Assembly (NCBI GenBank): GCA_964016885.1
Contig: OZ024750.1
Location: forward strand, 51,088,001-51,152,000
Source: Eledone cirrhosa
Lineage: Eukaryota
Direction: 5' to 3'
DNA: 64,000 nt
The position numbers and the translations under genes were made by a program. The notes beneath the pieces were generated by a model, which made no database searches, had not been told where the DNA came from, and was given only the letters and a program-made list of their open reading frames with translations. This document shows, in pieces, positions 3,707-52,576 of the stretch (position 1 is its first letter; each line of letters opens with the position of its first letter).

Positions 3707-3772
3707 TATTTCATTATATATATTTCAGGGATATCATATTAACAATATGCTATGCCTTCCTCAGACAAAATA
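3707..3772 (-). ncRNA. Type I hammerhead ribozyme motif
   Basis: Reverse complement of the 4753-4818 motif. Confidence 0.8.
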
Positions 3773-4752
3773 CAATATAAACAGTTTTATAGATAAATAG
3801 ATTCGACATACCGTAACAACATCGACTTGCATTTGAAGAGGTTGATTTGGCAGTGAAAAAAATTGTACACAGAGAGAAAGAAAGAGAGAAAAAAGAAAGA
3901 AAGACAGAAAACGAAGAAAAGGAAGAAAAAGAAGAAATACATGGAACAAAATAGAGAGATGGAAAGATAGATAAAGAGAAGAACTTCATGTAAAGAAACA
4001 GAAAGAGATATATATATAGAGAGAGAGAGGAAATAGAGATAGATACATATATATATATAGAAAATTAGGTAGTGGGAGGTCTGTTGAGTAAATGTATCAA
4101 TGATACATTTATTTATTTATTTATTTATTTAGCTCTAGTATTAATGTAAGGGAGATATATAGAGAAAAAAATATAGAGAGAGAAAAAAATATAGCGAGAG
4201 AAAAAATTTAAAAATAACCAGATATATGCGAGGCGTAAAAACCCTATGTTTTAATATAGAGGTATTAGTATTTATAAAACATCCACTATATTGTAAATAT
4301 CAGTATTCCTGAATGAGACAAGTATCCATAGTGTGTGAAAATTAATGATCTTATGTTTAGTTTTTTTAAAAATTCATATGTTTATGTGATAGCTACAAAC
4401 ATCCATGTGATCTACATGATCAACTCTGCAAACCCTAAGGTCACGGAAAACATTCACAATGTGGTATAAAAATTTGAGTATACATATATGTGTATTATTA
4501 TTCCTGTCTTTACTCTACAAGATTATCTATCAAGCAGAAATAGAGAGCAGATATTCAATATACTAATAAAAATATATATCAGAAACAAAACTAAAAAATA
4601 ACAATAATAATAATAAGTAATAATAAAATAGAAAACTAAAAAAATATTAAAATATTAAAATATTTTTTTCACTGCCAAATCAACCTCTTCAAATGCAAGT
4701 CGATGTTGTTACGGTATGTCGAATCTATTTATCTATAAAACTGTTTATATTG

Positions 4753-4818
4753 TATTTTGTCTGAGGAAGGCATAGCATATTGTTAATATGATATCCCTGA
4801 AATATATATAATGAAATA
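4753..4818 (+). ncRNA. Type I hammerhead ribozyme motif
   Basis: UAUUUUGU-CUGAGGA-helix II (AGG..CAUAUU/AAUAUG..CCU)-GAAA-UAUAUA-UA-AUGAAAUA; 8-bp helix I. Confidence 0.82.
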
Positions 4819-4855
4819 AATATGGTTTTATAAATATAGTTTCCATTTATTTAAT

Positions 4856-4885
<30 letters not shown>

Positions 4886-7694: not shown

Positions 7695-8000
7695 AGATAT
7701 ATATATATATAAAAACAAATAACGAAACGAAATTAAATTTCGTTTCGCTTCTAACTCACTTTTGTATGACTGACGCTTAAACAATTAAGTTAAAGTGTAC
7801 ATCTACATATGTATACGGAAGTATTAGTATGCATATAAATACACACATGTATACATATGTACATGTACTCAGCTTTTCACTAGACACTTTACAGTGAGTG
7901 TCAGCTAGTCTGTATGTAACCACACAGACGGACCGGGTTTTAGAGTCATACGGGTTTTCAAGGAAACACATTTCCTCTATTCTCCACAGGGCCAGACAGG

Positions 8001-8045
8001 AATATTGGACTAGTTTCGATGTTATTACATCTCATCAGCAATATT
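8001..8045 (-). ncRNA. Minimal type I hammerhead (GUC)
   Basis: Reverse complement of 8957-9001. Confidence 0.92.
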
Positions 8046-8463
8046 TACCCATCTTCCGGCTTCTCTGGAGAATTGTAAAAGCACATATCGTTATATGCTT
8101 TTTCTATGAAAATTAGTAGTGGGTAGACTAATTTGCATAGAACGTGAGTCAATGTACGCACCGGTTCAGCGGAAACGATAAAAACAAATAACGAAACGAA
8201 ATTTAATTTCGTTTCGCTTCTAACTCACTTTTGTATGACTGACGCTTAAACAATTAAGTTAAAGTGTACATCTACATATGTATACGGAAGTATTAGTATG
8301 CACATAAATACACACATGTATACATATGTACTCAGCTTTTCACTAGACACTTTACAGTGAGTGTCAGCTAGTCTGTATGTAACCACACAGACGGACCGGG
8401 TTTTAGAGTCATACGGGTTTTCAAGGAAACACATTTCCTCTATTCTCCAGAGGGCCAGACAGG

Positions 8464-8508
8464 AATATTGGACTAGTTTCGATGTTATTACATCTCATCA
8501 GCAATATT
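8464..8508 (-). ncRNA. Minimal type I hammerhead (GUC)
   Basis: Reverse complement of 8957-9001. Confidence 0.92.
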
Positions 8509-8956
8509 TACCCATCTTCCGGCTTCTCTGGAGAATTGTAAAAGCACATATCGTTATATGCTTTTTCTATGAAAATTAGTAGTGGGTAGACTAATTTGCA
8601 TAGAACGTGAGTCAATGTACGCACCGGTTCAGCGTAAACTGTAAAGTGTCTAGTGAAAAGCTGAGTACATGTACATATGTATACATGTGTGTATTTATAT
8701 GCATACTAATACTTCCGTATACATATGTAGATGTACACTTTAACTTAATTGTTTAAGCGTCAGTCATACAAAAGTGAGTTAGAAGCGAAACGAAATTTAA
8801 TTTCGTTTCGTTATTTGTTTTTATCGTTTCCGCTGAACCGGTGCGTACATTGACTCACGTTCTATGCAAATTAGTCTACCCACTACTAATTTTCATAGAA
8901 AAAGCATATAACGATATGTGCTTTTACAATTCTCCAGAGAAGCCGGAAGATGGGTA

Positions 8957-9001
8957 AATATTGCTGATGAGATGTAATAACATCGAAACTAGTCCAATAT
9001 T
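8957..9001 (+). ncRNA. Minimal type I hammerhead (GUC)
   Basis: AAUAUUG-CUGAUGA-GAUGU AAUA ACAUC-GAAA-CUAG-UC-CAAUAUU; outer stem AUUCUCCAGAG/CUCUGGAGAAU. Confidence 0.93.
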
Positions 9002-9236
9002 CCTGTCTGGCCCTCTGGAGAATAGAGGAAATGTGTTTCCTTGAAAACCCGTATGACTCTAAAACCCGGTCCGTCTGTGTGGTTACATACAGACTAGCTG
9101 ACACTCACTGTAAAGTGTCTAGTGAAAAGCTGAGTACATGTACATATGTATACATGTGTGTATTTATATGCATACTAATACTTCCGTATAAATATGTAGA
9201 TGTACACTTTAACTTAATTATATATATTTATATATG

Positions 9237-16123: not shown

Positions 16124-16379
16124 AATTCCATATATGGTAAAAGTGATTGTCACAAGGATTGGTCAAAAGTTTGTTGTTGAGACACATGATTCTATCATGG
16201 CATTTTGTGGAAGGTAGGGGTAGCTGAACTTGCCAGTAGAAGAAATAGGGAGAGGGAGTGGAGGAAACCTAGTCAAGCGTTGAAAGTGACAACTACAGCA
16301 GATTCTAAGGATAGAAAGTCGAAAAAAGAGAGTTTGATGGTATTTTTGTTGATTTAAATTCACCGATATTTTTTCCTGC

Positions 16380-17457
16380 ATTCGGCGGTGGATTGTACCG
16401 TGATGATGGGCTCCTTACCCTTAAAAGGTACAACCCCAGTAGTACAGACCGGGGCCGTAAACAATTAATCAGCTTCTTCCGCGACTGGAGATTTAAAATA
16501 ACCCTACAGACGTCCTTAACCCGAGTAAACTTCCTGGACATTACTCTTAACCTCGATAACGACCTGTACTACCCATACAGCAAACCAAACGACAACCTGC
16601 ACTACATCCACCACCGGTCGAACCATCCTAGAAACATCACCAATAACCTGGTTAAAAACATCTCCCTCCGCATATCTCGTTTGTCCGCTTATGAGCAGAT
16701 ATTCGAGGAACATGCGCCTTATTACAACCAGGCCCTCAAGTGGAGTGGCTTCCGGGAGGAAATATCCTATTGTCCAGCTTCCATTAGCGGAACCAGCAGG
16801 CCACACCGCCGCTGACGCAACGTAACTTGGTTCAATCCTCCCCACAATACCGAGGTGACAACAGCTGTCGGGAAAATCTTCTTTAGGCTCATCGAAAAAC
16901 ACTTCCCACAACAACACCGCTACCACAACGTAATCAACAAAAATACCATCAAACTCTCCTACAGCACCGCACCAAACTTAGCACAAAACATCGTCTCTAA
17001 CAACAAAAAACTCAACCCCTATGGAAGAAATAACCTAGATAGCAGCGGAGATCCGACCAGGAGGTGTAACTGTCCTGATGGATCCCTTTTCCCCCTCGAC
17101 AACAGATGCAGATATCGTAATGTGATCTACCAGTGCAATGTGAGGACGGACACCTCCAACAAAGCTTATATAGGATTAACCGCTTGTGACTTCAAGACCC
17201 GACTATACCAACACAGACATACTTTCCGGAACCCGGCCCGGCGTCACGTCACTACACTTTCGGGCCACATCTGGGACCTCAAAGATAACAATAGAACCTA
17301 TAATCTCACTTGGAGCTTACTGTCCAGAACCAACTCTTACACGGGAGGACGCCGTCCGTGTAACTTATGCTCGGAGGAAACATTACAAATGCTGTTTTCG
17401 ACTTACCAACTCAAACCCCATAATGACCCGGGGGGGGGGGGGGTAGACAAGGGCTGA
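16380..17457 (+). pseudogene. Penelope RT C-terminus plus GIY-YIG endonuclease (one internal stop)
   Basis: GLYRDDG, VNFLDITL, YIH..SNHP, WFNPP, KLSYS, NVIYQC..YIGLT, CNLC. Confidence 0.9.
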
Positions 17458-20859: not shown

Positions 20860-21054
20860 CACACATATACACATACATACACACACACACATATACACAT
20901 ACATATACACACACAAAACCTCATATATATTTACACACATATGCTTATACATATATATATATATAAATATGTATATTTATAATATATATGCAAAGTATAT
21001 AAAATATGTAGGAAAATGATAATATAAGCTAGACATATGAACAACAGAAACAGG

Positions 21055-24000
21055 AGAGAATAGAGAGTAATAGAGTGTAATGGAGAGTAATGGAGAGTAA
21101 TAGAGAAGAATAGAGAGGAATAGAGAGTAATGGAGAGTAATAGAGAGTAATAGAGAGGCATAGAGAGTAATAGAGAGTAATAGAGAGGAATAGAGAGGGA
21201 TAGAGAGTAATAGAGAGTAATAGAGACGAATAGAGAATAATCGAGAGTAATAGGGAGTAATGGAGAGTAATAGAGAGTAATAGAGAGTATTAGAGAGTAA
21301 TATAGAGGAATGGAGAGTAATAGAGAGTAGTAGAGAGAGATAGAGAGTAATAGAGAGTAAGAGAGAGTAATGGAGAGGGATAGAGAGTAATAGAGAGCAA
21401 TATAGAGGAATATAGAGTAATAGAGGGTAATGGAGAGTAATAGAGACGAATAGAGATGAATAGAGAGTAATAGAGAGTAATAGAGAGGAATAGAGAGTAA
21501 TAGAGAGTAATGGAGAGTAATGGAGAGTAATATAGAGTAATAGAGAGGAATAGAGAGTAATTGAGAGTAATAGAGAGGAATAGAGAGTAATAGAGAGGAA
21601 TAGAGAGTAATTGAGAGTAATACAGAGTAATAGGGAGTAATGGAGAGTAATAGAGAGTAATAGAGAGGAATAGAGAGTAATAGAGAGTAATAGAGCGGAA
21701 TAGAGAGTAATAGAGAGTAATGGAGAGTAATAGAGAGTAATAGAGTGTAATAGAGAGTAATAGAGAGGAATAGAGAGAAATAGAAAGTAATAGAGAGTAA
21801 TAGAGAGTGATAGAGAGTAATAGAGTGTAATATAGAGGAATAGAGAGTAATAGAGAGTATTAGAGAGAGATAGAGAGTAATAGAGAGTAATAGAGAGTAA
21901 TGGAGAGTAATAGAGAGTAATAGAGAGCAATGGAGTGTAATAGAGAGTAATAGAGAGGAATAGGGAGTAATAGAGAGTAATAGAGAGGAATAGAGTGTAA
22001 TAGAGAGTAATAGAGAGTAATGGAGAGTAATAGAGAATAATAGTGAGGAGTAGAGAGTAATATAGAGTAATAGAGAGGAGTAGAGAGTAATAGAGAATAA
22101 TGGAGAGTAATAGAGAGTAATAGAGTGAAAGAGAGAGTAATAGAGAGGAATAGAGAGGAATAGAGAGGACTAGAGAGTAATAGAGAGTAATGAAGACTAA
22201 TAGAGAGCAATAGAGAGGAATAGAGAGGAATAGAGAGTAATAGAGAATAATGGAGAGTAATAGAGAGTAATAGAGTGTAATATAGAGTAATAGAGTGTAA
22301 TAGAGAGTAATAGAAGTAATAGAGAGGAATAGAGAGCAATAGAGAGGAATAAAGAGGAATAGAGAGTAATAGAGAGTAATAGAGAGGAATAGAGAGTAAT
22401 GGAAAGGAATAGGGAGTAATAGAGAGTAATAGAGAGTAATATAGAGTAATAGAGAGTAATGGAGTGTAATAGAGTGTGATAGTGAGTAATAGGCAGGAAT
22501 GGAGTGTAATAGATAGTAATAGCGAGTAATAGAGAGTAATGGAGAGTAATAGAGAGTAATAGAGAGTAATGGAGAGTAATAGAGAGTAATGGAGAGTAAT
22601 AGCGTGTAATAGATAGTAATAGAATGTAATAGAGAGTAATAATGAGTAATGGAGTGTAATAGAGAGTAATAGAGAGTTAATGGAGTGTAATAGAGAGTAA
22701 TAGAGAGTAATGGAGAGTAATGGAATGTAATAGAGTGTAATAGAGAGTAACAGAGAGTAATGGTGTGTAACAGAGTGTAATAGAGAGTAATGGAGAGTAA
22801 TAGAGAATAATGGAGAGTAATGGAGAGTAATGGAGAGTTATGGAGTGTAATGGAGTGTAATAGAGAGTAATAGAGAGTAATAGAGAGTAATGGAAAGTAA
22901 TGGAGAGTAATGGAAAGTAATAGACAGTAATGGAGTGTAATAGAGAGTAATAGAGAGTAATTGAGAGTAATGGAATAGAGATTAATAGGGAGTAATGGAG
23001 AGAAATAGAGAGTAATAAAGAATAATAGAGAGTAATAGATACTAATAGAGTGTAATAGAGAGTAATAGAGAGTAATAAAGAGTAATGTAGGGTGATAGAA
23101 TGTAATAGACAGTAATATAGAGTAACAGAGAGTAATAGAGTGTAATAGAGAGTAATGGAGAGTAATGGTGAGTAATAGAGAGTAATAGAGTGTAATAGAG
23201 AGTAATTGAAAGTAATAGAGAGTAATAGAGAGTAATATAATGTAACAGAGAGTAATAGAGTGTAACAGAGAGTAATACAGTAATATAGAGTAATAGCGAG
23301 TAATAGAGTGTAATAGAGAGTAATAGAGAGTATTAGAGAGTAATATAGAGGAATAGAGAGTAATAGAGAGTAGTAGAGAGAGATAGAGAGTAATAGAGAG
23401 TAAGAGAGAGTAATGGAGAGGAATAGAGATTAATAGAGAGCAATATAGAGGAATATAGAGTAATAGAGGGTAATGGAGAGTAATAGAGAGGAATAGAGAT
23501 GAATAGAGAGTAATAGAGAGTAATAGAGAGGAATAGAGAGTAATTGAGAGTAATACAGAGTAATAGGGAGTAATGGAGAGTAATAGAGAGTAATAGAGAG
23601 GAATAGAGAGTAATAGAGAGTAATAGAGCGGAATAGAGAGTAATAGAGAGTAATGGAGAGTAATAGAGAGTAATAGAGTGTAATAGAGAGTAATAGAGAG
23701 GAATAGAGAGAAATAGAAAGTAATAGAGAGTAATAGAGAGTGATAGAGAGTAATAGAGAGTAATATAGATGAATAGAGAGTAATAGAGAGTATTAGAGAG
23801 AGATAGAGAGTAATAGAGAGTAATAGAGAGTAATGGAGAGTAATAGAGAGTAATAGAGAGCAATGGAGTGTAATAGAGAGTAATAGAGAGGAATAGGGCG
23901 TAATAGAGAGTAATAGAGAGGAATAGAGTGTAATAGAGAGTAATAGAGAGTAATGGAGAGTAATAGAGAATAATAGTGAGGAGTAGAGAGTAATATAGAG

Positions 24001-27000
24001 TAATAGAGAGGAGTAGAGAGTAATAGAGAATAATGGAGAGTAATAGAGAGTAATAGAGTGAAATAGAGAGTAATAGAGAGGAATAGAGAGGAATAGAGAG
24101 GACTAGAGAGTAATAGAGAGTAATGAAGACTAATAGAGAGTAATAGAGAGGAATAGAGAGGAATAGAGAGTAATAGAGAATAATGGAGAGTAATAGAGAG
24201 TAATAGAGTGTAATATAGAGTAATAGAGTGTAATAGAGAGTAATAGAAGTAATAGAGAGGAATAGAGAGCAATAGAGAGGAATAAAGAGGAATAGAGAGT
24301 AATAGAGTGTAATAGAGAGGAATAGAGAGTAATGGAAAGGAATAGGGAGTAATAGAGAGTAATAGAGAGTAATATAGAGTAATAGAGAGTAATGGAGTGT
24401 AATAGAGTGTGATAGTGAGTAATAGGCAGGAATGGAGTGTAATAGATAGTAATAGCGAGTAATAGAGAGTAATGGAGAGTAATAGAGAGTAATAGAGAGT
24501 AATGGAGAGTAATAGAGAGTAATGGAGAGTAATAGCGTGTAATAGATAGTAATAGAGTGTAATATAGAGTAATAATGAGTAATGGAGTGTAATAGAGAGT
24601 AATAGAGAGTTAATGGAGTGTAATAGAGAGTAATAGAGAGTAATGGAGAGTAATGGAATGTAATAGAGTGTAATAGAGAGTAACAGAGAGTAATGGTGTG
24701 TAACAGAGTGTAATAGAGAGTAATGGAGAGTAATAGAGAATAATGGAGAGTAATGGAGAGTAATGGAGAGTTATGGAGTGTAATGGAGTGTAATAGAGAG
24801 TAATAGAGAGTAATAGAGAGTAATGGAAAGTAATGGAGAGTAATGGAAAGTAATAGACAGTAATGGAGTGTAATAGAGAGTAATAGAGAGTAATTGAGAG
24901 TAATGGAATAGAGATTAATAGGGAGTAATGGAGAGAAATAGAGAGTAATAAAGAATAATAGAGAGTAATAGATACTAATAGAGTGTAATAGAGAGTAATA
25001 GAGAGTAATAAAGAGTAATGTAGGGTGATAGAATGTAATAGACAGTAATATAGAGTAACAGAGAGTAATAGAGTGTAATAGAGAGTAATGGAGAGTAATA
25101 GAGAATAAGAGTGAGGAGTAGAGAGTAATATAGAGTAATAGAGAGGAGTAAAGAGTAATAGAGAATAATGGAGAGTAATAGAGAGTAATAGAGTGAAATA
25201 GAGAGTAATAGAGAGGAATAGAGAGGAATAGAGAGGACTAGAGAGTAATTGAGAGTAATAGAGAGGAATAGAGAGTAATTGAGAGTAATACAGAGTAATA
25301 GGGAGTAATGGAGAGTAATAGAGAGTAATAGAGAGGAATAGAGAGTAATAGAGAATAATGGAGAGTAATAGAGAGTAATAGAGTGTAATATAGAGTAATA
25401 GAGTGTAATAGAGAGTAATAGAAGTAATAGAGAGGAATAGAGAGCAATAGAGAGGAATAAAGAGGAATAGAGAGTAATAGAGTGTAATAGAGAGGAATAG
25501 AGAGTAATGGAAAGGAATAGGGAGTAATAGAGAGTAATAGAGAGTAATATAGAGTAATAGAGAGTAATGGAGTGTAATAGAGTGTGATAGTGAGTAATAG
25601 GCAGGAATGGAGTGTAATAGATAGTAATAGCGAGTAATAGAGAGTAATGGAGAGTAATAGAGAGTAATAGAGAGTAATGGAGAGTAATAGAGAGTAATGG
25701 AGAGTAATAGCGTGTAATAGATAGTAATAGAGTGTAATATAGAGTAATAATGAGTAATGGAGTGTAATAGAGAGTAATAGAGAGTTAATGGAGTGTAATA
25801 GAGAGTAATAGAGAGTAATGGAGAGTAATGGAATGTAATAGAGTGTAATAGAGAGTAACAGAGAGTAATGGTGTGTAACAGAGTGTAATAGAGAGTAATG
25901 GAGAGTAATAGAGAATAATGGAGAGTAATGGAGAGTAATGGAGAGTTATGAAGTGTAATGGAGTGTAATAGAGAGTAATAGAGAGTAATAGAGAGTAATG
26001 GAAAGTAATGGAGAGTAATGGAAAGTAATAGACAGTAATGGAGTGTAATAGAGAGTAATAGAGAGTAATTGAGAGTAATGGAATAGAGATTAATAGGGAG
26101 TAATGGAGAGAAATAGAGAGTAATAAAGAATAATAGAGAGTAATAGATACTAATAGAGTGTAATAGAGAGTAATAGAGAGTAATAAAGAGTAATGTAGGG
26201 TGATAGAATGTAATAGACAGTAATATAGAGTAACAGAGAGTAATAGAGTGTAATAGAGAGTAATGGAGAGTAATGGTGAGTAATAGAGAGTAATAGAGTG
26301 TAATAGAGAGTAATTGAAAGTAATAGAGAGTAATAGAGAGTAATATAATGTAACAGAGAGTAATAGAGTGTAACAGAGAGTAATACAGTAATATAGAGTA
26401 ATAGCGAGTAATAGAGTGTAATAGAGAGTAATAGAGAGTATTAGAGAGTAATAGAGAGGAATAGAGAGTAATAGAGAGTAGTAGAGAGAGATAGAGAGTA
26501 ATAGAGAGTAAGAGAGAGTAATGGAGAGGAATAGAGAGTAATAGAGAGCAATATAGAGGAATATAGAGTAATAGAGGGTAATGGAGAGTAATAGAGAGGA
26601 ATAGAGATGAATAGAGAGTAATAGAGAGTAATGGAGACTAATAGAGAGTAATAGAGAGGAATAGAGAGTAATTGAGAGTAATAGAGAGTAATAGGGAGTA
26701 ATGGAGAGTAATAGAGAGTAATAGAGAGGAATAGAGAGTAATAGAGAGTAATAGAGCGGAATAGAGAGTAATAGAGAGTAATGGAGAGTAATAGAGAGTA
26801 ATAGAGTGTAATAGAGAGTAATAGAGAGGAATAGAGAGAAATAGAAAGTAATAGAGAGTAATAGAGATTGATAGAGAGTAATAGAGAGTAATATAGAGGA
26901 ATAGAGAGTAATAGAGAGTATTAGAGAGAGATAGAGAGTAATAGAGAGTAAGAGAGAGTAATGGAGAGTAATAGAGAGTAATAGAGAGCAATGGAGTGTA

Positions 27001-28595
27001 ATAGAGAGTAATAGAGAGGAATAGGGAGTAATAGAGAGTAATAGAGAGGAATAGAGTGTAATAGAGTGTAATAGAGAGTAATGGAGAGTAATAGAGAATA
27101 ATAGTGAGGAGTAGAGAGTAATATAGAGTAATAGAGAGGAGTAAAGAGTAATAGAGAATAATGGAGAGTAATAGAGAGTAATAGAGTGAAATAGAGAGTA
27201 ATAGAGAGGAATAGAGAGGAATAGAGAGGACTAGAGAGTAATAGAGAGTAATGAAGACTAATAGAGAGTACTAGAGAGGAATAGAGAGGAATAGAGAGTA
27301 ATAGAGAATAATGGAGAGTAATAGAGAGTAATAGAGTGTAATATAGAGTAATAGAGTGTAATAGAGAGTAATAGAAGTAATAGAGAGGAATAGAGAGCAA
27401 TAAAGAGGAATAAAGAGGAATAGAGAGTAATAGAGAGTAATAGAGAGGAATAGGGAGTAATAGAGAGTAATAGAGAGTAATAGAGAGTAATAGAGAGTAA
27501 TGGAGTGTAATAGAGTGTGATAGTGAGTAATAGGTAGGAATGGAGTGTAATAGATAGTAATAGCGAGTAATAGAGAGTAATGGAGAGTAATAGAGAGTAA
27601 CAGAGAGTAATGGTGTGTAACAGAGTGTAGTAGAGAGTAATGGAGAGTAATAGAGAATAATGGAGAGTAATGGAGAGTAATGGAGAGTTGTGGAGTGTAA
27701 TGGAGTGTAATAGAGAGTAATAGAGAGTAATTGAGAGTAATGGAATGGAATAGAGTTTAATAGGGAGTAATGTAGAGAAATAGAGAGTAATAAAGAATAA
27801 TAGAGAGTAATAGATACTAATAGAGCGTAATAGAGAGTAATAGAGAGTAATAAAGAGTAATGTAGGGTGATAGAATGTAATAGACAGTAATATAGAGTAA
27901 CAGAGAGTAATAGAGTGTAATAGAGAGTAATGAAGAGTAATGGTGAGTAATAGAGAGTAATAGAGTGTAATAGAGAGTAATTGAAAGTAATAGAGAGTAA
28001 TAGAGAGTAATATAATGTAACAGAGAGTAATCGAGTGTAACAGAGAGTAATACAGTAATATAGAGTAATAGCGAGTAATAGAGAGTAATAGAGAGTAATA
28101 GATTGTAATAGAGAGTAATAGAGAGTAATTGAGAGTAATAGTGAGTAATAGAGAGTAATAGAGTGTAATAGAGTGTAATAGAGTGTAATCTAGAATAATA
28201 GAGAGTAATAGAGTGTAATAGAGAGTAATATAGAATAATAGAGAGTAATAGAGAGTAATAGAGTGTAATAAAGAGTAATAGAGAGTAATATATAGTAATA
28301 GAGACCAATTGAGAGTAATAGAGAGTAATAGAGAATAATAGAGCGTAACAGAGTAATAGAGTGTAATAGAGAGTAATACAGTAATATAGAGTAATATAGA
28401 GTAATAGAGAGTGATAGAGAGTTACAGAGAGAAATAGAGAGTGATAGAGTGTAACAGAGAGTAATATAGAATAATAGAGAGGAATAGAGAGTAATAGAGC
28501 GTAATAGAGAGTAATAGAGAGTAATATAGCGTTATAGAGAGTAATAGTGAGTAATTGAGAGTAGTAGAGAGTAATAGAGAGTAATAGAGAGTAAC
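21055..28595. repeat. 10-bp satellite (TAGAGAGTAA)n with higher-order duplications
   Basis: The same variant block recurs at ORF-track anchors 22339, 24272, 25447 and 27400. Confidence 0.97.
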
Positions 28596-29319: not shown

Positions 29320-31900
29320 CATACGAAATAAGTGAGGGTTCCCTTGAGACTGTGATAAGAAAACTCCAAGATAAGAAAACACCAGGAAGAGACATGATTG
29401 TCGGCTACTGGTACAAAAAACTAATATTCAATCGGAGGTAACTTACTGACCTCTACCAACAAGTTCTTAAGGGAGATACACTTATACCAGAATGGTTGAC
29501 ATTAACACAAACATTACTGGTCCCCAAGAACAAAGACACTCACTTGGCAAAAAACTACCGACCCATTGCATGCCAGAACCTCATGTATAAGATGTATACA
29601 GCCTGCCTCAACCTATTCGTCCAAGATCACTGTGAAAATAATAACATCATCACAGATGAACAAGCAGCTGGAAAGAAAAGGGTTTGGGGATGTGCTGATC
29701 ACCTTCTAATCAACAAAACTGCGATGTCGGAGGTGCGACAACTTAGGAGGAATATGACTACAGTCTGGCTGGACTACTTTAAAGCTTTCGATTCTGTTCC
29801 TCACTCTTGGATGATAGAGGCCCTCCAACTTGCTAAAGTCCCAGACATTATTGTCAGAGCCATAGAGAGGCTGTCTTCTTCTTGGGCTACTATCCTTAGG
29901 TTAAAGACAGAGAGGGAGGACTCTATTTTCACTGATAAAATAAAATATTGCAGGGGTATATTTCAGGGGGACAGTCTCTCTGTGATATTGTTCATCTTGT
30001 CATTAAACCCCTTGTCGTTTCTGCTCAAGAATTGTGAGGGATACATCACTGACTCAGAGGAGGACAGAAATACGAACCTAACCCATAACTTCTTTGTGGA
30101 CGATCTGAAACTCTATGCCAAGAACATGGATGGGATGAAGAAAAATCTTGACCTCGCTACAACGTTCTCAAAGGATATAGGAATGGAATTTGGCCAAGAT
30201 AAATGATCATACATGACTGTAAAGCGGGGGAAAACAACAGCCCAATCTAGCAACATTGTCATCAATGGTCTAACTGTTTCACCGATATCTGATCAGGACT
30301 GCTACAGATACACGGGGATGGATGAGAACATATCCTATAATGGTATCTGTAATAAAGAACACGTAACTAGGGAATACTACACCCGATTAAGAAAGATCTG
30401 GTCATCGGAACTCTCTGCGCAAAACAAAACAGTGGCTCACAATGTGTTTGCTGTGCCTGTCCTAACACCAACGTTTGGAATACTCAATTGGACGATAGAC
30501 GAAATCCGAGCAGTTGATGTTGGAACTCGAAAAATACTGAACAACACCGGAAACTTCCACATCAACAGTGACATAGACCGCCTTTACTTGAAACATAAGC
30601 AGGGATGCAGAGACCTTACATCAGTCCAGACAACATTTGAATGTCGCATCATATCTCTCCGACAACATCTACGAACCTTGAAGCGTAGGAGCCCGCTTCT
30701 CAAGCAAGTCTATCTGCATGAAACAGATAAGATCATGAGAGTTGGGAAGGAACTCCTTGAGAGATATTCCCTGTGTGATAATCAAAAACTCAAAACCAGG
30801 GATGTCGCTCAGCAGTATCGCAGTGAATCCATGGATGAAAAACAGCATGCCTATCAGCAAAAATTCATGCATGGATATGTTGCCAGGAAGCTCCAGAGCG
30901 AGAGTAATATAGATAAGGAAAGTAGTCTATCTTGGACCAACAACCGCTATATTGGCTCCCACTTTGAAGGATACGCTTTTGCAATCCAAAACAGGAGATT
31001 AGCACGAAATACCTGATTCACAAAAGAGATAAGGATGCAGGCAAAACACCTAGATGTGATAACAAGTGCAGGCTCTGCAGAACTAACATAGAGGATATCA
31101 CCCATGTAAGCAGCAGCTGTCCAAAGATGTCATCGCGGTACTATCTAACTATGAGGCATGATGTAGTGGCCAAAACACTGTACAATGCAGTTCCTAAAAA
31201 AGATAGCCCTGATAATAAACACATTAAAAGCTACAACAATGTGGAAGACATCCATGTGCATAATATGAAAAAGTACTAGTAGAATGTTCCAGTAAAAACC
31301 CCAATAAAATGCAGGCATAACAGACCAGATATTATGATATGGGACAGGGAGAAGAAAACATGCACAGTAGTGGAAATTAGCTGCCCAGCAGATGCCAATA
31401 TAATATCAAAGATTAGTGAAAAGGAGAATATTTATGCAGAACTGATGAGAAATCTGCAGATACTCCAACCTGATTACACCTTCAGATTTATGCCTGTGAT
31501 TATTGGGGTACTGGGATATGTTAGTAACTGCCTCAATACAAATCTTGAGAAGCTAGGCTTCACAGGAACAGAAAGAACACAACTAGTTAGGAAATTACAA
31601 GTACAATCCATTAATGGAACAGTAAAAATATGTAAACATTCCAAAAATGTTGCATTTAATAACTGCATATACACATGTACAGTTACAAAGCATACACACA
31701 TGCACACACACAACTCAAAACATACACATCCACACATACAATAACATCCATATCTACACATGCATACATACATATCTACCTAGTTGATGTTGTGTAAATT
31801 CCAATGAGAGAGTCTTGTGTCTATGTTAGAAACCGACTCTCTATTGGTAAAACTTTGTGAAATTATGAAACCAGAAGAACATACATACATACATACATAC
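29320..31900 (+). mobile_element. 5'-truncated RLE-type non-LTR retrotransposon (R4/Dong-like)
   Basis: RT, CCHC and restriction-like endonuclease motifs; ends in (CATA)n. Confidence 0.85.
29330..31660 (+). pseudogene. RT-CCHC-RLE ORF of the R4/Dong-like LINE (stops and frameshifts)
   Basis: NYRPIAC, WLDYFKAFDSVPH, GIFQGDSLS, FVDDLKLY, CRLC..H....C, RHD, RPDI..VVEISCP. Confidence 0.88.
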
Positions 31901-32126: not shown

Positions 32127-35100
32127 CTGGCAGTTTAGCCCGGCGTTGCTCGGGTTTGTTCATTTAGCTATGAAAAGTTACATACAGGTAAACGTGGCTT
32201 GAAAGCGAATAAGCTTATCAATTAAGTGCATAAAGCAGTTGAACCGGTTATTAAAAGTTACGAACCAATTAGCATTTTGGACAATCAATGATGGGTTAAT
32301 AATCTTCCAATAGCGAATTTTGTAGACAAAAGTTGTAAGATGGTGGCGCTGATGCCGCTGGGTGTCAGATCTGCCCTACTAGGAAATAGTTTTCCAGACG
32401 GCATAGCTCCAACACCGCCAACACCTTCACCCACATCTATAGCACCTCTTTGTAGACGATATTGCGTTTCATCCCTTGAGCACTGTAAGCAAAAAGTCCA
32501 TTCCTGCTCCCTACTCGGGAAACAGGCAAGATAAAGTTGGCCATGGGAGAAGCATGGCTCCTCCAAATGGATGCCCGCCACCGACAATGTTTGCCCTTGT
32601 GACTTGTTAATGGACATGGCAAACATGGTCTCACCGGGAATTAGGATCGCCGGAAATCGAACGGGATATCTGACGCCGAGGGGAAAAGGTTCATCCTTCG
32701 AATGAAAACATTCTATCCTCTCCCGCACCCGTTACAATGGTGGCCTCAATCAAGTGGGGCGTCAGTAACTTGACGATCATGCGAGTACCGTTGTACTGCT
32801 TTGGTGGACGCAAGTTCCTTATTAGCATAATGGGACAGCCAACCCTAAGCTTAAGAATGTGAGGTGGGAGTCCTAGGGGCTCAAGGGAATTTAATAACTC
32901 AACCGGATAATTAACGATATCGTCGGGATCTGACGTCCAGTCGATAGATTTGAAGATGGCTCTTTACTGGGAATCTTCTCAATCAGCTGCTCGTTAATAA
33001 AATTAACCATGGTATTTTTCGGTGCAAGGATGGCTCTTTCGCTGAGCCAATTGAGGTTTTTAAAGTTAGATGAGACATTAGGAAAAACTGCTTCCCAAAG
33101 GTCAGAAGGGCTGCTCACAATATTGCACAGGGAGTCGATTGCTATGCCGCCCTTGTCATCCGCAAGGACCTTGCCCTCACCAAGTGCTAAAATGTTCTGA
33201 GCAAATGCTGCAGACATGTTGTCACCATGCAAATGAGCACGCATATTTGTGCTCAGGTACAAACTCTTAAACTGGAGCCACAACATGGACGATTTAAGGC
33301 AGGCACGCACTTTATCAGCTCTTGTCTCTTTGGGGATGACAGGCAGCGTTTGCCGAAAATCCCCTGATAGCAGAAAGGTTACGCTAACCATAGGAGCCGT
33401 AGAATCCCTAATGTCTTTCAGGGTCCTGTACAATGCACCCTTCTGTGCCATTGTGCGCTCATCTTAAACAATTAGGCAACATTTTTTGAGAACCAGAGCT
33501 TCGTGTGAACTCTCGCTGATATTGCATGTTGGTGTCTCAGTTTTTACTAAATCCAAGAGGAGTTTAAAAGCTGAATGTAGATAATGTCACTGTAACCAAC
33601 TTCCACTGAAGGATACTTCAGATGATCCAGGCGCAGGAAGTCCTCAGACATGAAGTCTCTGTACTGGACCCATAAAGATTTGGGATCACCCAATTCACAC
33701 TTTTGAAGCAAAATGGCAAAGAGTTCCCGTAGACTTTTAGGTGATTTCAACAAAGCACCATCTGCTAAAGTGGAATCCCATTGCGAATCATCTTCCAAAA
33801 CACCACGCTTAAAGCAGGCTTCCTGGTACGTATCACATATTTCTCCATCAACAGTTTTGAGGTTCTGAAAACTTTGTGGGCCTACAACTTCATGCAGAAG
33901 AAGGTGGAGATGAAAGCAATCATGCTGACTTGGAGGCACAGTGTAAACCCTTCCAAGACAGCTGTCAGATTTTACACCAGGGTGTCTTTCAACAGCCTGA
34001 CCTGACTTTCTTCGCACACAAGTGTTTTTCGACCATATAAAGTAGGATGGAACCTGGGGGTACACAATTGTTTGCGCAAATATATCCAACTGGCAAAGTT
34101 TGAAGAACCCCGTCAGAGTGGTCTCTTTCGGATCGGTGGCCAACTTGGTGACGGTTTGGTCCGTAAAGTAAACCCTTTGCCCATTTTCCAAATGTACCAC
34201 AAGCTGTACGATGGTGGGGTGCCGTTGGTGTAGGGGTAAACCAAATAAGCGCCAAAAAGCTTCATTGCTACTGATGTACCGCCCCGCCAGGTATTCTATG
34301 ACCTCCTCCCTGCTATTTTCAGCTTGAAATGCGAACATTGCGGCATCAGAGAGCCCTTATTTAGATATTTGTATATGTATTTTATCGACTTGAGGGAGTT
34401 GCAAAACTCAACGTTGATGTGAGCGTTGAAGATCGCCAAGAGAAGCGGGCAGTAAGGGACCACCCATCTATTGTCGACTTGGCCTCTCTTTACTGTTGTG
34501 GTGAAGCCACCGTTCTCCGGCCGTCTCCGCCTGTACAGGGGGTACCCGTCGCCACGAGTCTGAGTCTGGTCAACAAATTTTTGGGGGTATCCCTTACTGC
34601 ACGACCCCCCTTTCAGACAGGTGTGATGCTCATTAGGATCCGACGCACACGGACCATGTTAGCTTTGACGATGTCATGTAATTCATGGTCAGTTGCTGGG
34701 TTAGGGATTTCAGCCAAAATGAAGCTGTCTATGGCATTTGAATTGATTTTATCAGCTCACCAAATCAAAATGTCAGCATGTGGCAGCCCTCGTTTTTGCC
34801 ATTCGACGGTGAACATGTCACATTTTACAGCCCCATATACCTGACTCTTTTTGATTAAAGCCATGAGTTTAGCCAGTTTCAGTCTGAACACTTTGGCAAT
34901 GAGGTCATGTCTGTTCGAATAATTTTTCCCATGAAAAAGTTCACGGGTTACATTCCGATTCATATGTCTATAGCATTAATCTGTTATATGAAGTGGTATT
35001 TTGCAGGTTGTTATTTGCAATAAGCCGATTGAAAATGCCCCAGATAAGCCGTATGTCAATATGGAACGCTCCACTGCAGTGTTGTCATATAGGGAGTGAA

Positions 35101-35844: not shown

Positions 35845-35884
35845 GATATTAAATAAATGGAAACTATATTTATAAAACCATATT

Positions 35885-35950
35885 TATTTCATTATATATA
35901 TTTCAGGGATATCATATTAACAATATGTTATGCCTTCTTCAGACAGAATA
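35885..35950 (-). ncRNA. Type I hammerhead motif
   Basis: Reverse complement of 36184-36249, with one helix I mismatch. Confidence 0.75.
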
Positions 35951-36183
35951 CAATATAGACAGTTTTATAGATAAATAGATTTGACATACCGTTCAACATC
36001 GACTTGTATTTGAAAAAGTTGATTTGGCAGTGAAAAATTTCTTCTTTTTCGTCATTTTCTTTCTTTCTTTCCTTCTTTCTTTCTTTCTGTTTACAATTTT
36101 TCACTGCCAAATCAACTTTTTCAAATACAAGTCGATGTTGAACGGTATGTCAAATCTATTTATCTATAAAACTGTCTATATTG

Positions 36184-36249
36184 TATTTTGTCTGAAGAAG
36201 GCATAACATATTGTTAATATGATATCCCTGAAATATATATAATGAAATA
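36184..36249 (+). ncRNA. Type I hammerhead motif
   Basis: UAUUUUGU-CUGAAGA-helix II-GAAA-UAUAUA-UA-AUGAAAUA; N7 differs from 4761 (A vs G), as expected at the variable position. Confidence 0.82.
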
Positions 36250-36378
36250 AATATGGTTTTATAAATATAGTTTCCATTTATTTAATATCGTAAATATACT
36301 CCAAATACTTGTTGAGTGCTTTTATATCAGTTATTAATATTTACTAGTTGTAACCCAACAATTTAAATATAACTTTCC

Positions 36379-36409
<31 letters not shown>

Positions 36410-37881: not shown

Positions 37882-37890
<9 letters not shown>
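37351..37890 (+). mobile_element. Retrozyme-like tandem array (315-bp unit) in (TA)n
   Basis: HHR cores at 37365 and 37680; body homologous to the 310/312-bp family. Confidence 0.85.
37677..37717 (+). ncRNA. Type I hammerhead (GUC); a second copy lacking helix I at 37365-37399
   Basis: GCU-CUGAGGA-ACAC CAACA GUGU-GAAA-CAG AAU CUG-UC-AGC; outer stem UUUCGGCAGAGG..AGGGAG/CUCCCU..CCUUUGCCGAAA. Confidence 0.9.
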
Positions 37891-37913
<23 letters not shown>

Positions 37914-38008
37914 CACAGAAAATAGAGAATCAGTGTAGCGACGAAAGGAATTCATTTATCCAACACCAATTATATATATTTATATATATATTTATATACG
38001 GCAGTAAT

Positions 38009-39867
38009 ATGGAAAGGCATCATATAGGTATGTCACTTAAAAACATACCTATACATAACAAAAGGGAATACATTCTTGGTATGATACAACGCAATAACGA
38101 CTTTATTCGGCGTGTACGATGGAAGTCTTTCCATTTCGAAAAGGGACACGCCAGTCACTCGTCTGAATCATATGGTTTTAAATCATGTAAAACCCCACCC
38201 ACAAACCCCCATCTGGATGCTTTGGAACAAGACTTAATGAATACGGCCATGAATATTAAGTTTACCAAACATAGAAGTAATGAGCTGCAGAGCAACATGA
38301 AAGCACTACTCCGAAGACTGCAAAATACCAATGGAATTGTTGTGAAAGCGGACAAGACCTCTAACGTGTATACCATGGATATCGATACGTACAACAGCTT
38401 CATACGCAAAGAACTACATAAGAAATATAGAAAAACAAATGGAACTACGCTAGCAAATATTAACAAAGAGGCATACATGGTGGTGAAGAATCTCAGGATA
38501 GACGAACCGAGCTGATTATACCCGCTACCCCCACCTTCAACCTGAAGGACCATAAGGTAAATTTTGACTCTAACCCTAAGATTAGACTTATATACCCTTC
38601 TAAATCAGACATAGGAAAAATTAACAAATATATACTTGACAGAGTAATAATTCAATTGAAAAAGAAAATAGAAATTAAATTATGGGGCAACACTAGCGAA
38701 GCAATTCGCTGGTTTAATAACGTTAAGAATAAGAATAAATCTAAGTTTATACAATTTGACATAGACGAATACTACTCTTCAATCTCACCCGGCACTTTAC
38801 ATAAGGCCCTATCGTTTGCTAAAGTCAATTCCGACCTAACGGAGCACGAAATTAATATTATTCTAGAGGCTAGAAAAACTATTATCAAGTTTGATAACTG
38901 CTACTGGGAACGTAAGGACAGACCCACAAACTTCGACATTACCATGGGCTCCAACGACTCAGCGGAGGTCACCGATCTTGTGGGAATTTACATAGCCCGC
39001 ATACGACATGGTATATTTAGTAATCTACAGGGGGGAATATAAAGAGATTACGGGTTCTTATTAGTTAATAACTTAAATAACCAAAATCTTGAAAGGCTAC
39101 GGAAAAACATTAGAAAATCTTTTAGTGAACTGGGTCTAAAAATAACGTACGAATATAATCTTAAAGTAGTAAATTTTCTAGACGTAACTCTTAATTTAAA
39201 TACCGGACTGATACGACCCTTCCACAAGATAAATTAGAACCTTACCTATATCAATTTTAACTCAAACCACCCACTTTCCATGATCAAATCGGTTCCCTGT
39301 AGTATTTCTCTTAGAATCTCTCGCTTATCGTCTGACTCTGAGATTTTCAGTGAACATGCAGAATACTATAATAATGCATTAAGGAATGCCGACCACCGGA
39401 ATACAATAGAATACATTGATAAGTATCTCCATAACACACATAGCTCTACACGAAATCAAAGATTACGTAACCGGGGTACAGAAATACAAGCTCACACACG
39501 CAGTACCACCAGACATACTAATAATAGAAAATCATCACCAAATAAATCACGTTGTAGAAAGTATATCTGGTATAATCCCATTTTTAATGCTTCGATTAGT
39601 ACAAAACTATCTCTTTCATTCTTTAAGTTAATCAACAAACATTTCCCTAGTTCTCATAAATACAGTAAAATTCTGAACTCTAAAACTCTTAAACTATCAT
39701 ACTCCACAGCACCAAACCTTGAAGCATACATACCTAAACTTAACTTAAAGCAATTAAACAACACTACAAAGCAAATTATTTTAATAACAGATGAGCATAA
39801 CATAGTATCGGCTCTAGAAACAGCAGTCAAGACAACTAGAAACAGCAGTCAATTCTTTTCAAATTAA
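38009..39867 (+). pseudogene. Penelope-like RT ORF (N-terminus to thumb; frameshifts and stops; GIY-YIG missing)
   Basis: SLKNIP, RRVRWK, KADKTSN, QFDIDEYYSSI, ITMGS.DSAE..DLVG, VNFLDVTL, SNHP, WYNP, KLSYS. Confidence 0.88.
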
Positions 39868-41079: not shown

Positions 41080-41750
41080 TATTGTTCATTTAGCTTGGGT
41101 TGGAATTTATCAATAAAATTCTTTTCTTTGATTTTTCTCTTGATTTCACTTGGGCTGTGTAATTTGTAGAATGTTTATATTATATATATTTTCTGACCAC
41201 ATGTTACTAGATGGTTACTCAGGAGTATCTGACGGACATTTGGGTCTCTGATTTGCTGTCGGTGCACCCGTACACCTTCCGATAATGCAATTCCAGTTTG
41301 ACCGACATATAGTCCTTCATAATTCGGGCATTTAATGCAGTAAATTCGGTTTCTGCTTTTGCAGTTCATATTTGCATTTGGGAATATTTTTCCAGTTTTT
41401 GTGTTCATATATTGACCGGTGTGTATGGATTGACATGTGCCACATCGACTATCATTGCATTTAGATACAGTGAATGATTGGTCTTTGTTGTTAAGGTCAA
41501 ACTTTGCTTTTGTTAGTAATTGCTTCAAATTTTTCGGCTGTCTTTAACTAAGAGTCAACGATTGGTCTGTGATTAAGCCTTTTAATTCATTACTTTGAGC
41601 AATGAACGGTAGGTTTGCTATGGCAGATATTCTGGTGACATGGGTTGTATGTCATTATAAATGGTATGACCAGTTCTTGGTTTCTTCTTCCTTGGGTTGT
41701 CCTAGGTTGTTGTATAGGTATTTTTATAGTCCGCTGTATGCCATTTTGTA
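41080..41750 (-). pseudogene. Penelope GIY-YIG endonuclease fragment
   Basis: KC..RCGTC, IYCIKC..LYVGQTG..RV..HRQQI, ending FIDKFQPKLN. Confidence 0.85.
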
Positions 41751-49381: not shown

Positions 49382-49457
<76 letters not shown>

Positions 49458-49484
49458 TACCATCATATTACTTGGACAGTCGCC

Positions 49485-49529
49485 TTCCTGATGATTTCTC
49501 CCGAATGAAACAGTTCTAGTCCTGTAGAA
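49485..49529 (+). ncRNA. Type I hammerhead in an ~90-bp insert between (TA)n tracts
   Basis: UUC-CUGAUGA-U UUC UCCC GAA U-GAAA-CAG UUCUAGUC CUG-UA-GAA. Confidence 0.78.
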
Positions 49530-49560
49530 CCCTTTCTATATTAAATATATATATATATAT

Positions 49561-49809: not shown

Positions 49810-49862
49810 CGACTATATATTCCCAACTGTTTTCAAGTCCAGCAGTCGCAATTGTGGGAGGG

Positions 49863-49906
49863 ATCGCCCTGATGAGAACCAGTTCAGTTCGAAATGCATC
49901 GACGAT
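49863..49906 (+). ncRNA. Minimal type I hammerhead (AUC)
   Basis: AUCGCC-CUGAUGA-GAAC CAGUUCA GUUC-GAAA-UGCA-UC-GACGAU; outer stem UCCAGCAG/CUGCUGGA. Confidence 0.85.
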
Positions 49907-50058
49907 TGTCTCCCTTGCTTCTGCTGGACACTACCAGAGGGCGTTAACCCCGGTGTTTTTTGTATAGCTACGGCTTTCTAAATGTTTATCTGTAAACATA
50001 TACGAAATTTCTATACATATCTGTATACAGCTATGCCTGAAACTAAATTATAATTCTA

Positions 50059-50097
<39 letters not shown>

Positions 50098-50318
50098 AAT
50101 GAAAGTACAGCATATTCGAAGTTCGAGCAGCAGCCAAGCCAACGAATGCCTTCAGCAGTGCAGCCAAGCACTCGACAAGGTATAGACCTCAGAGTAATAA
50201 CATACAGATTAAAGGGCTTTGCAAATTGAAAATAGCGACCGCTAGTTCAGCTGCGTCATCTGTAGCAACGAAAGAACTGACTAGTGAGAAAAAATATATA
50301 TACATATATACATACACC

Positions 50319-50408
<90 letters not shown>

Positions 50409-50560
50409 AATGCTCTGAAATAGCGATATATATGTGAAGACAAACATAGAATATTCGAAAATATTCTGTATGTTTATAATAAACATTTTGAAGACCCAAT
50501 CGCTATAGAATAGAATACGTCACGTATTACAATTTGAGATTCTCGATAAAAGCAAGGGAA

Positions 50561-50603
50561 GTAACCTACGCGTTTCATTCTTATTAGAAATCATCAGGAT
50601 TAC
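50561..50603 (-). ncRNA. Minimal type I hammerhead
   Basis: Reverse complement of 51434-51476. Confidence 0.9.
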
Positions 50604-51121
50604 ATATCCAATGCTTTTATCGAGAACGACACAGCTAGAGACTTATAGAATACTTAGCTGTGTACAGGAACTGGTTTGAAAGAGCGGTAGCCGGTCCGGC
50701 AGAAATTAGAAATTGGATTTAATGCTCTGAAATAGCGATATATATGTGAAGACAAACATAGAATATTCGAAAATATTCTGTATGTTTATAATAAACATTT
50801 TGAAGACCCAATCGCTATAGAATAGAATACGTCACGTATTACAATAGGTTACTTCCCTTGCTTTTATCGAGAATCTCAAATTGTAATACGTGACGTATTC
50901 TATTCTATAGCGATTGGGTCTTCAAAATGTTTATTATAAACATACAGAATATTTTAGAATATTCTATGTTTGTCTTCACATATATATCGATATTTCAGAG
51001 CATTAAATCCAATTTCTAATTTCTGCCGGACCGGCTACCGCTCTTTCAAACCAGTTCCTGTACACAGCTAAGTATTCTATAAGTCTCTAGCTGTGTCGTT
51101 CTCGATAAAAGCATTGGATAT

Positions 51122-51164
51122 GTAATTCTGATGATTTCTAATAAGAATGAAACGCGTAGGTTAC
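51122..51164 (+). ncRNA. Minimal type I hammerhead
   Basis: GUAAUU-CUGAUGA-helix II-GAAA-CGCG-UA-GGUUAC. Confidence 0.88.
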
Positions 51165-51433
51165 TTCCCTTGCTTTTATCGAGAATCTCAAATTGTAATA
51201 CGTGACGTATTCTATTCTATAGCGATTGGGTCTTCAAAATGTTTATTATAAACATACAGAATATTTTCGAATATTCTATGTTTGTCTTCACATATATATC
51301 GCTATTTCAGAGCATTAAATCCAATTTCTAATTTCTGCCGGACCGGCTACCGCTCTTTCAAACCAGTTCCTGTACACAGCTAAGTATTCTATAAGTCTCT
51401 AGCTGTGTCGTTCTCGATAAAAGCATTGGATAT

Positions 51434-51476
51434 GTAATCCTGATGATTTCTAATAAGAATGAAACGCGTAGGTTAC
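51434..51476 (+). ncRNA. Minimal type I hammerhead
   Basis: GUAAUC-CUGAUGA-U UUCU AAUA AGAA U-GAAA-CGCG-UA-GGUUAC. Confidence 0.92.
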
Positions 51477-51745
51477 TTCCCTTGCTTTTATCGAGAATCT
51501 CAAATTGTAATACGTGACGTATTCTATTCTATAGCGATTGGGTCTTCAGAATGTTTATTATAAACATACAGAATATTTTCGAATATTCTATGTTTGTCTT
51601 CACATATATATCGCTATTTCAGAGCATTAAATCCAATTTCTAATTTCTGCCGGACCGGCTACCGCTCTTTCAAACCAGTTCCTGTACACAGCTAAGTATT
51701 CTATAAGTCTCTCGCTGTGTCGTTCTCGATAAAAGCATTGGATAT

Positions 51746-51788
51746 GTAATCCTGATGATTTCTAATAAGAATGAAACGCGTAGGTTAC
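51746..51788 (+). ncRNA. Minimal type I hammerhead
   Basis: Identical to 51434-51476. Confidence 0.92.
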
Positions 51789-51908
51789 TTCCCTTGCTTT
51801 TATCGAGAATCTCAAATTGTAATACGTGACGTATTCTATTCTATAGCGATTGGGTCTTCAAAATGTTTATTATAAACATACAGAATATTTTCGAATATTC
51901 TGTTTGTC

Positions 51909-51980
<72 letters not shown>

Positions 51981-52576
51981 TGCACATATCTGTATATATA
52001 AAATACCTGGACCAAAACTTCGAAATTGTAGAATATCTAAGTGATGTTTCTGTAAATCTGAAATCAACAAAATCCGCTTGTGGTGTATACAAGTTAGGTT
52101 TCTGGAAGATCGAACAGAGGACTTACTTTCTCAACAGGCTTTCGTTCTAACATAGAGAGAGAAAGAGCGTGTGTGTATGTGTGTGTCTGTGCGTGTGTCT
52201 GTGTGTGTGTACATTTTTCAAAAATATTTCTTCGGTGCTTCAATACGAAACTCATCGCCATGATTTGAATACTGAATAGAAGAAAAAGCCATAGAACATT
52301 TAATCAAAATTATATATATATATATGTGTGTGTGTGTATATATATGTATGCATGTATGTATATATGTGCGCTTATACGTTGTATCCACCTACTTATTTAT
52401 CTATATATATATATGTGTGTATTTCTGTGAGTGTCTGTGTGTTTAGGCATTGTGTCTACGTTTCTATCTATCTATTTATCTATCTATCTCTTTCTCTCTA
52501 TATATATAAATCTCTCTCTTTCTCTCTATATATATACCGAAAAGAAACACACAAACTGACACACACACACACACAC

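Follow-up and report, generated by a model that had tools for sequence, protein, structure and literature searches.

A two-armed array of a 312-nt hammerhead repeat in Eledone cirrhosa and its probable two-ended insertion by the reverse transcriptase of a Penelope-like element (PLE)

The insertion and its hammerhead motifs

We analysed a stretch of 64,000 nucleotides from Eledone cirrhosa (GenBank assembly GCA_964016885.1, contig OZ024750.1, positions 51,088,001 to 51,152,000 of the forward strand), which we refer to as the window. At positions 50401-51912 the window holds a young copy of a common non-coding 312-nt repeat, a non-LTR retrozyme. In this copy 1.43 units on the minus strand stand head-to-head with 3.42 units on the plus strand, and (TA)n tracts lie on both sides. 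The unit was numbered from window position 51159, the base after a predicted hammerhead cut, which is unit position 1. The features of the insertion are the following.

50328..50400, no strand: (TA)n target tract, left (repeat listing 50328-50401, 37 copies)
50401..50845, minus strand: tailed arm (A arm), unit positions 34-312 and then 1-166, 1.43 units
50401..50434, minus strand: one-sided tail of 34 nt, unit positions 133-166, with no counterpart at the outer end of the B arm
50561..50603, minus strand: type I hammerhead motif of the minus arm (motif scan), read through; predicted cut between 50567 and 50566
50845..50847, no strand: head-to-head joint, with 1-nt microhomology at T50845, common to both arms
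50845..51912, plus strand: untailed arm (B arm), from unit position 311 to fixed site 132, 3.42 units
51122..51164, plus strand: type I hammerhead motif 1, predicted cut 51158/51159
51434..51476, plus strand: type I hammerhead motif 2, predicted cut 51470/51471
51746..51788, plus strand: type I hammerhead motif 3, predicted cut 51782/51783
51913..52000, no strand: (TA)n target tract, right (repeat listing 51912-52000, 44.5 copies)

The outer end of the A arm, at unit position 166, is a fixed site of the 312-nt family; base 50400, just beyond it, is compatible with both the left (TA)n tract and unit position 167. The B arm carries a 2-nt deletion directly before its end at unit position 132. 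The A arm has zero internal mismatches against the middle unit of the plus array, pairwise comparison of the three full plus-arm units gives 3, 5 and 2 differences in 312 positions, and the tandem array as a whole (50845-51921) has a period of 312, 3.5 copies and 98% matches. The GC content is 0.31 over 50001-52000, flanks included. No stop-to-stop frame of at least 120 aa overlaps 50401-51912, and the element is thus non-coding, with no ORF for RT and GIY-YIG.

A preliminary description of the window had placed this array exactly, with cut sites before 51159, 51471 and 51783 at a period of exactly 312, and its estimate of about 3.4 passes for the sense arm agrees with the 3.42 units measured. 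The recent insertion that it proposed is supported: singleton differences between units of the subfamily amount to about 0.25% per base, which indicates that the 312-nt subfamily is young. The same description had the sense segment start at the predicted cleavage site. The start does lie within 2 nt of that site, but A50846, which is H17, the last base of the 5' cleavage product, matches the plus arm only, so that the segment begins 1-2 nt upstream of the scissile bond; G50847 is the first base of the predicted 3' cleavage product.

The hammerhead motif was called from a motif scan and from the published description of metazoan type I motifs, and an Rfam scan of the whole 64-kb window returned 0 matches at the gathering score. 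It is made up of a 6-bp stem I, CUGAUGA, a 4-bp stem II, GAAAC, a palindromic stem III of two base pairs, and GUA; in motif 1 of the window copy the base of stem I is a U-G pair. Each pass over unit positions 276-6 carries the motif (4/4 motif-bearing passes in the window), the core is intact in 292 of 306 family units, and by our reading by eye the differences between the 310-, 311- and 312-nt subfamilies leave stems I and II paired. Folded as a single strand, the region did not adopt the active monomer fold, as expected with a stem III of 1-2 bp, and in a predicted co-fold two copies of the motif pair through the palindromic stem III. Metazoan type I motifs with a short palindromic stem III are described as needing a second copy to fold and as cleaving poorly as monomers (PMC4209133), and the window motif fits this description. 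The RNA of the unit would be a candidate for self-cleavage, judging by its motif.

The window holds several further repeats. Two head-to-head hammerhead mini-insertions of another family lie in (TA)n at 35845-36380 and 3580-4860; in both, one arm is longer at its outer end, and the arms of the second are separated by about 850 nt of other sequence. At 7709-9220, between (TA)n tracts, two minus units of a 463-nt hammerhead repeat stand head-to-head with about 1.2 plus units. Two single hammerhead fragments lie directly to the left of the insertion; the one at 49810-50060 resembles the 312-nt unit downstream of the cut site, and the one at 49455-49550 resembles short insertions in three other loci (L218, L222 and L231). 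The motif scan gave 11 further type I hammerhead-like motifs outside the insertion, between 3715 and 63804. Broken reading frames occur at 16315-17457, 37889-39867, 41175-41543, 29442-31744 and 32285-34658, which by eye we take to be pieces of PLE-type RT/GIY-YIG, LINE-type RT and Helitron-type helicase. Positions 21054-28594 are taken up by a 10-nt unit repeated over 7.5 kb, with extreme GC skew, and 63 copies of a 38-nt minisatellite occupy 1-2406.

Outer ends and arms across the 312-nt family

Genome-wide searches were performed on the 3.0-Gb assembly. An internal 38-mer of the unit has 19,093 exact matches in the genome, the hammerhead pattern has 13,399, across the 310-, 311- and 312-nt subfamilies, and one form of the tailed end of the 312-nt subfamily has 129. 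The first set of loci comprised 38 taken from the best BLAST matches, 39 of 724 candidates having been scored. The second comprised 79 further stretches, which together with 20 of the 38 loci of the first set cover 100 of the 129 tailed-end matches, and the third comprised 13 loci of sister subfamilies. One stretch (L198) was dropped, its joint being identical to that of L197, so that the 312-nt subfamily is represented by 116 loci in addition to the window; 98 of these were chosen by their outer end. Arms containing N were left out of the variant analysis, and minor second elements within the fetched stretches were dropped. With its 312-nt period (in a range of about 150-450), low GC, one motif per unit, lack of coding capacity and dispersed occurrence, the repeat has the features by which non-LTR retrozymes are recognized. 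A distant relative at L104:2440-2880 (76% identity over 97 nt) also has the head-to-head layout, with unequal outer ends.

The head-to-head layout was found at 104 of the 116 loci; the remaining 12 consist of 11 single-orientation loci and 1 compound one. The outer ends are fixed and come one of each kind: at 93 of the 104 head-to-head loci one arm ends at unit positions 164-172 and the other at 116-143, the others being 1 locus with two tailed ends and 10 with an atypical end. The mode of the untailed end is position 132 (46 of 103 such ends), which is 34 nt short of 166. Where loci had not been selected by their ends, 28 of 38 had one end of each kind, as did 11 of the 13 loci of the sister subfamilies, and two untailed ends were found in none of either set. 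(TA)n adjoins 193 of 220 outer ends. In either allele class, the first target base beyond position 166 tracks the base that the element itself has at 167, suggesting that 1-2 nt of primer and template pair; target-site duplications are unreadable because the flanks are themselves (TA)n. The insertions thus show head-to-head 5'-truncated arms, a tail of 30-40 nt at one end and an AT-rich microsatellite target, all of them features of the PLE insertion layout.

The inner ends, by contrast with the fixed outer ones, are ragged and scattered. Arm lengths are continuous, from 0.1 to 22 units, and only weakly linked between the two arms of a locus (rho 0.27, n=88); in 31 of the 87 simple loci neither of the two could be contained in its partner. 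The joints are not palindromic, inner ends lying at most 10 nt apart in 4/87 loci with 5.9 expected, and a palindromic fold-back was rejected on this count. Arms that start just after the end site of the other arm number 3/110 and 3/100, against 3.2 and 2.9 expected; this is the chance level, and a linear twin-priming geometry, in which the arms would abut, was therefore also rejected. Among joints without inserted bases, 26 of 69 share at least 3 nt, compared with 6.6% by chance (p=8e-14), and inserted bases are present at 18 of 87 joints.

The two arms also share their variants. At seven variable sites the arms agree in 446 of 452 tests, where 318 would be expected if they were independent, and 21 of 84 informative loci carry a total of 24 rare variants that are fixed in every unit of the locus. 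Of these, 19 are present in both arms and 6 are private to one locus, the largest number of units concerned being 19/19; in the window, 167T is found in all four covering passes, and it was seen in 3 loci of the set. The 17 distinct fixed variants, which were checked for an RNA-editing signature, comprise 5 A>G, 5 A>T, 3 T>C and 4 others. A further 36 variants, 23 of them rare, are found in some but not all units of a locus, a pattern that a single circle without later change does not predict. The agreement between arms could also reflect the dominance of one source locus at a time, and the fixed variants could reflect later gene conversion or consensus polishing during assembly. In one run of unrecorded kind the unit appears as a 342-nt contig that closes on itself at a period of 312; a DNA tandem would look identical. 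Unit position 190 is the one most often mixed within a locus (10/73 loci, for example L061, L065 and L039, against a median of 1). It lies directly 3' of a GC-rich palindrome and may represent a sequencing error, a mutation hot spot or a modified RNA base.

The inner joint and the predicted cleavage site

The joint of the window insertion lies beside a predicted cleavage site, and the preliminary description took it for a footprint of cleavage in vivo, naming a uniform spread of junctions in other copies as a result that would speak against this. Such a genomic footprint would have mattered, and the family data speak against it. Inner (5') ends at most 3 nt from the cleavage site number 3/196 in 98 loci, with 4.4 expected under uniformity (p=0.82). 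In all 116 loci they number 5/229, with 5.1 expected, and in the 13 loci of the sister subfamilies 0/26. The junctions of these copies show no excess at the site, and 300 cleavage sites are read through in the 98 loci, so that the footprint fails the test proposed for it.

Joints were also counted genome-wide, using patterns that require three mismatches upstream of the tested site. At the cleavage site they found 23 joints, of which 19 were of the type seen in the window and 4 were flush, compared with 17 (16 and 1) at a control site that is likewise preceded by GTA, and 5 at a second control site, which was tested in one register only. Since the test pattern is blind to the 311-nt subfamily and the control is not, these counts leave room for an excess of up to about twofold. 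By our estimate, the joints matched at the site make up no more than about 1% of all inner ends, which the matches to the internal 38-mer put at several thousand. The distribution of inner ends departs somewhat from uniformity (chi-square p=0.01-0.02): 45 of 210 lie in the stretches 12-27 and 246-262, where an internal inverted repeat has its feet, with 22 expected in these stretches, which were chosen post hoc. The densest 9-nt window of inner ends holds 16 against a mean of 13.2, which is not significant (p=0.066).

How then should the window joint be read? In the model that accompanied the preliminary description, reverse transcription reached the 5' end that self-cleavage had left on the RNA, after which a template switch made the inverted arm. 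The plus arm of the window does begin at most 2 nt from the predicted site, four further loci end at -2 or -1 (L039, L045, L050 and L055), and among the 38 BLAST-picked loci 4/74 ends lie within 2 nt of the site (1.2 expected, p=0.03). The BLAST query started at the cleavage site, which biases that set toward ends there, and, as each locus has two inner ends, about 1 locus in 30 is expected to have one within 2 nt by chance (2 x 5/312). Moreover, an RNA already cut at the site would lack A50846, the base 5' of the scissile bond, and as the other arm does not template this base, the model must assume one untemplated addition. The inverted arm stops at a fixed site of the family, and is not a copy of the primer end of the first arm; in the 31 of 87 loci where neither arm fits inside the other, neither can have copied the other by fold-back. 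Taken with the 0/26 ends of the sister subfamilies and the 23 versus 17 joints genome-wide, these points make the model very unlikely in our view. Given the scattered inner ends of the other copies, the position of the window joint beside the cleavage site is likely due to chance. The wider proposal that a hammerhead RNA was retro-inserted after being copied several times over, either round a circle or along a multimer, is, on the other hand, supported. The quantified rejection of a cleavage-site footprint is the main contribution of this locus, and it agrees with in vitro data on a PLE in that hammerhead cleavage does not set the ends of insertions.

Proposed mechanism and comparison with known systems

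We propose that the RNA of a non-LTR retrozyme was copied, likely round a circle, by the reverse transcriptase of a PLE, with each broken strand of the target serving as a primer. As a whole we consider this account probable; our confidence is higher for a PLE-type two-ended insertion and lower for the circle. The RNA of the unit would cleave itself as a dimer and be ligated into a circle, as may be presumed from work on other retrozymes (PMC7229834). A PLE protein would nick both strands of a (TA)n tract, and each 3' end would prime one cDNA, presumably at the fixed RNA sites 166 and 132, 34 nt apart. Each cDNA would run for 0.1-22 passes, through a ligated or uncut hammerhead site, and stop at a scattered point, whereupon microhomology, or the addition of a few bases, would unite the two ends. 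In its most specific form, dual-primed rolling-circle reverse transcription, a dimer of the PLE enzyme would copy a single 312-nt circle with an obligatory 132/166 asymmetry; arrays would be born multimeric, and the inverted repeat and the tail would come from the same step. We give this form about an even chance. If it is true, the PLE inverted repeat and its one-sided tail both arise from one step, and retrozyme arrays are multimeric from birth.

The same PLE machinery with two primers could also have used a long uncleaved linear multimer, or two RNAs of one source locus, in which case circles and cleavage would have no role in mobilisation. Unprocessed RNA is described as the dominant substrate in vitro, where mutation of the hammerhead left insertion normal (PMC11167929), monomers of motifs whose stem III is short and palindromic cleave poorly (PMC4209133), and cleavage was not seen for 8 of 9 Xenopus retrozymes as described in bioRxiv 10.64898/2026.07.22.740005. 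The 36 partial variants also fit a multimer, and an uncleaved one would give read-through just as a circle would. Against this stand the 24 rare variants fixed across all units and in both arms, for which a bottleneck of one unit is required, and the arms, which do not abut as parts of one molecule; we therefore regard a linear or two-molecule template as unlikely. It is highly improbable that a single primed cDNA gave rise to the second arm by self-priming or fold-back, that the tail was made by endonuclease resolution and that unequal crossover lengthened the arrays later. Each of these steps has been proposed before, fold-back for the palindromic joints of PLEs (PMC3846280), endonuclease resolution for their tail (PMC8557442) and later local amplification for retrozymes (bioRxiv 10.64898/2026.07.22.740005), and at a few joints the 15-nt inverted repeat within the unit is indeed used (16-nt overlaps). 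The joints of this family are nonetheless not palindromic, many arms cannot be contained in their partners, and arm lengths are continuous with ragged inner ends.

That the inversion is an artefact of assembly or of fold-back reads seems hardly credible. No contig among those listed bridges the window joint, and one locus (L038) has an N gap at its joint. The layout recurs at 104 of 116 other loci with scattered, non-palindromic joints and unlike outer ends, which fold-back chimeras would not yield, and the inversion, which the preliminary description had allowed might be an assembly artefact, is accordingly taken to be real. Contigs from two runs of a single outside sample show 11 joints from minus to plus arm among the 15 listed, a weak indication, as the short side spans 20-29 nt.

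The element adds a member to the non-LTR retrozymes, a class that has been published before, as have the layout and the link between retrozymes and PLEs. Metazoan non-LTR retrozymes are described as dispersed, low-GC tandem repeats of about 300 nt with one type I hammerhead per unit and no ORF (PMC7229834), and their movement has been proposed to occur via circular RNA with enzymes of PLEs or LINEs (PMC7229834; bioRxiv 10.64898/2026.07.22.740005). The window repeat resembles the retrozymes of Cervera and de la Pena (2020) and of Li, Clavereau and Pollet (2026) in those features. It differs in being two-armed: the word "inverted" is absent from PMC7229834, and the preprint, in its text from abstract to discussion, mentions neither head-to-head arms nor fixed ends (bioRxiv 10.64898/2026.07.22.740005), both of which are found here. 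The preprint further suggests that arrays grow by later local amplification, whereas the present arrays appear to have been multimeric at the outset. For retrozymes of other species, cleavage and circles have been demonstrated (PMC7229834; bioRxiv 10.64898/2026.07.22.740005), whereas here the motif is read from DNA. In the literature covered, in which subscription journals are thinly represented, we found no published two-armed retrozyme arrays, no twin priming by PLEs and no two-primer rolling-circle reading.

For PLEs with an endonuclease, an inverted pLTR and a one-sided tail of 30-40 nt are the known insertion layout (PMC8557442, PMC3846280). The present insertions have in common with them the head-to-head 5'-truncated arms, the tail at one end (34 nt here), the microsatellite target and the microhomology at the 5' joint. 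They are unlike them in lacking an RT/GIY-YIG ORF, in that both arms are rolling arrays of a short unit, and in their non-palindromic joints.

A helper PLE was sought by comparing the unit by BLAST with 50 PLE-bearing (GIY-YIG) loci, out of 10,596 candidates, and no pLTR in them was matched; the matches obtained were neighbouring short hammerhead insertions. The five RT/GIY-YIG loci that were scored by eye, out of 20 long ones retrieved (L218, L222, L227, L229 and L230), have the head-to-head layout with a one-sided tail of about 35-60 nt. A likeness of the untailed end to the PLE family of L229 and L230 was set aside, as it extends over 6-8 nt and is too short to count. Several RT/GIY-YIG families carry, 3' of the frame, a hammerhead-like motif in which UUGAUAA or UUGAAAA replaces CUGANGA (L104, L213, L214, L218, L222, L224, L225, L229, L230 and L232), a change that, going by the motif, would keep the 3-8 pair.

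In LINE-1 twin priming, two primers at one target site give an inverted arm that is joined by microhomology. The insertions described here are unlike its products: the two start sites are fixed at a distance of 34 nt, a poly(A) end is lacking, and the arms share sequence instead of abutting. A large, young set of insertions of this kind constrains the origin of the inverted repeats and one-sided tails of PLEs and of the tandem arrays of animal retrozymes.

The closest experimental counterpart is Poseidon PAc of the green anole, for which both strands were found to be cut and extended in vitro, with two start sites in the RNA that bound the tail (Frangieh et al. 2024, PMC11167929). The two systems share these two internal start sites of reverse transcription bounding the tail, their place downstream of the hammerhead and the AT-rich target. 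In the account given for Poseidon PAc, hammerhead mutants did not impair insertion, and the RNA-seq reported there has no ends at the hammerhead site (PMC11167929). The systems differ in that the template of Poseidon PAc was linear and its start sites were alike on both strands, whereas one of each was found here at 93 of 104 loci. The pairing of ends, the independence of arm lengths and the variants common to both arms provide concrete predictions for the in vitro PLE assay that already exists.
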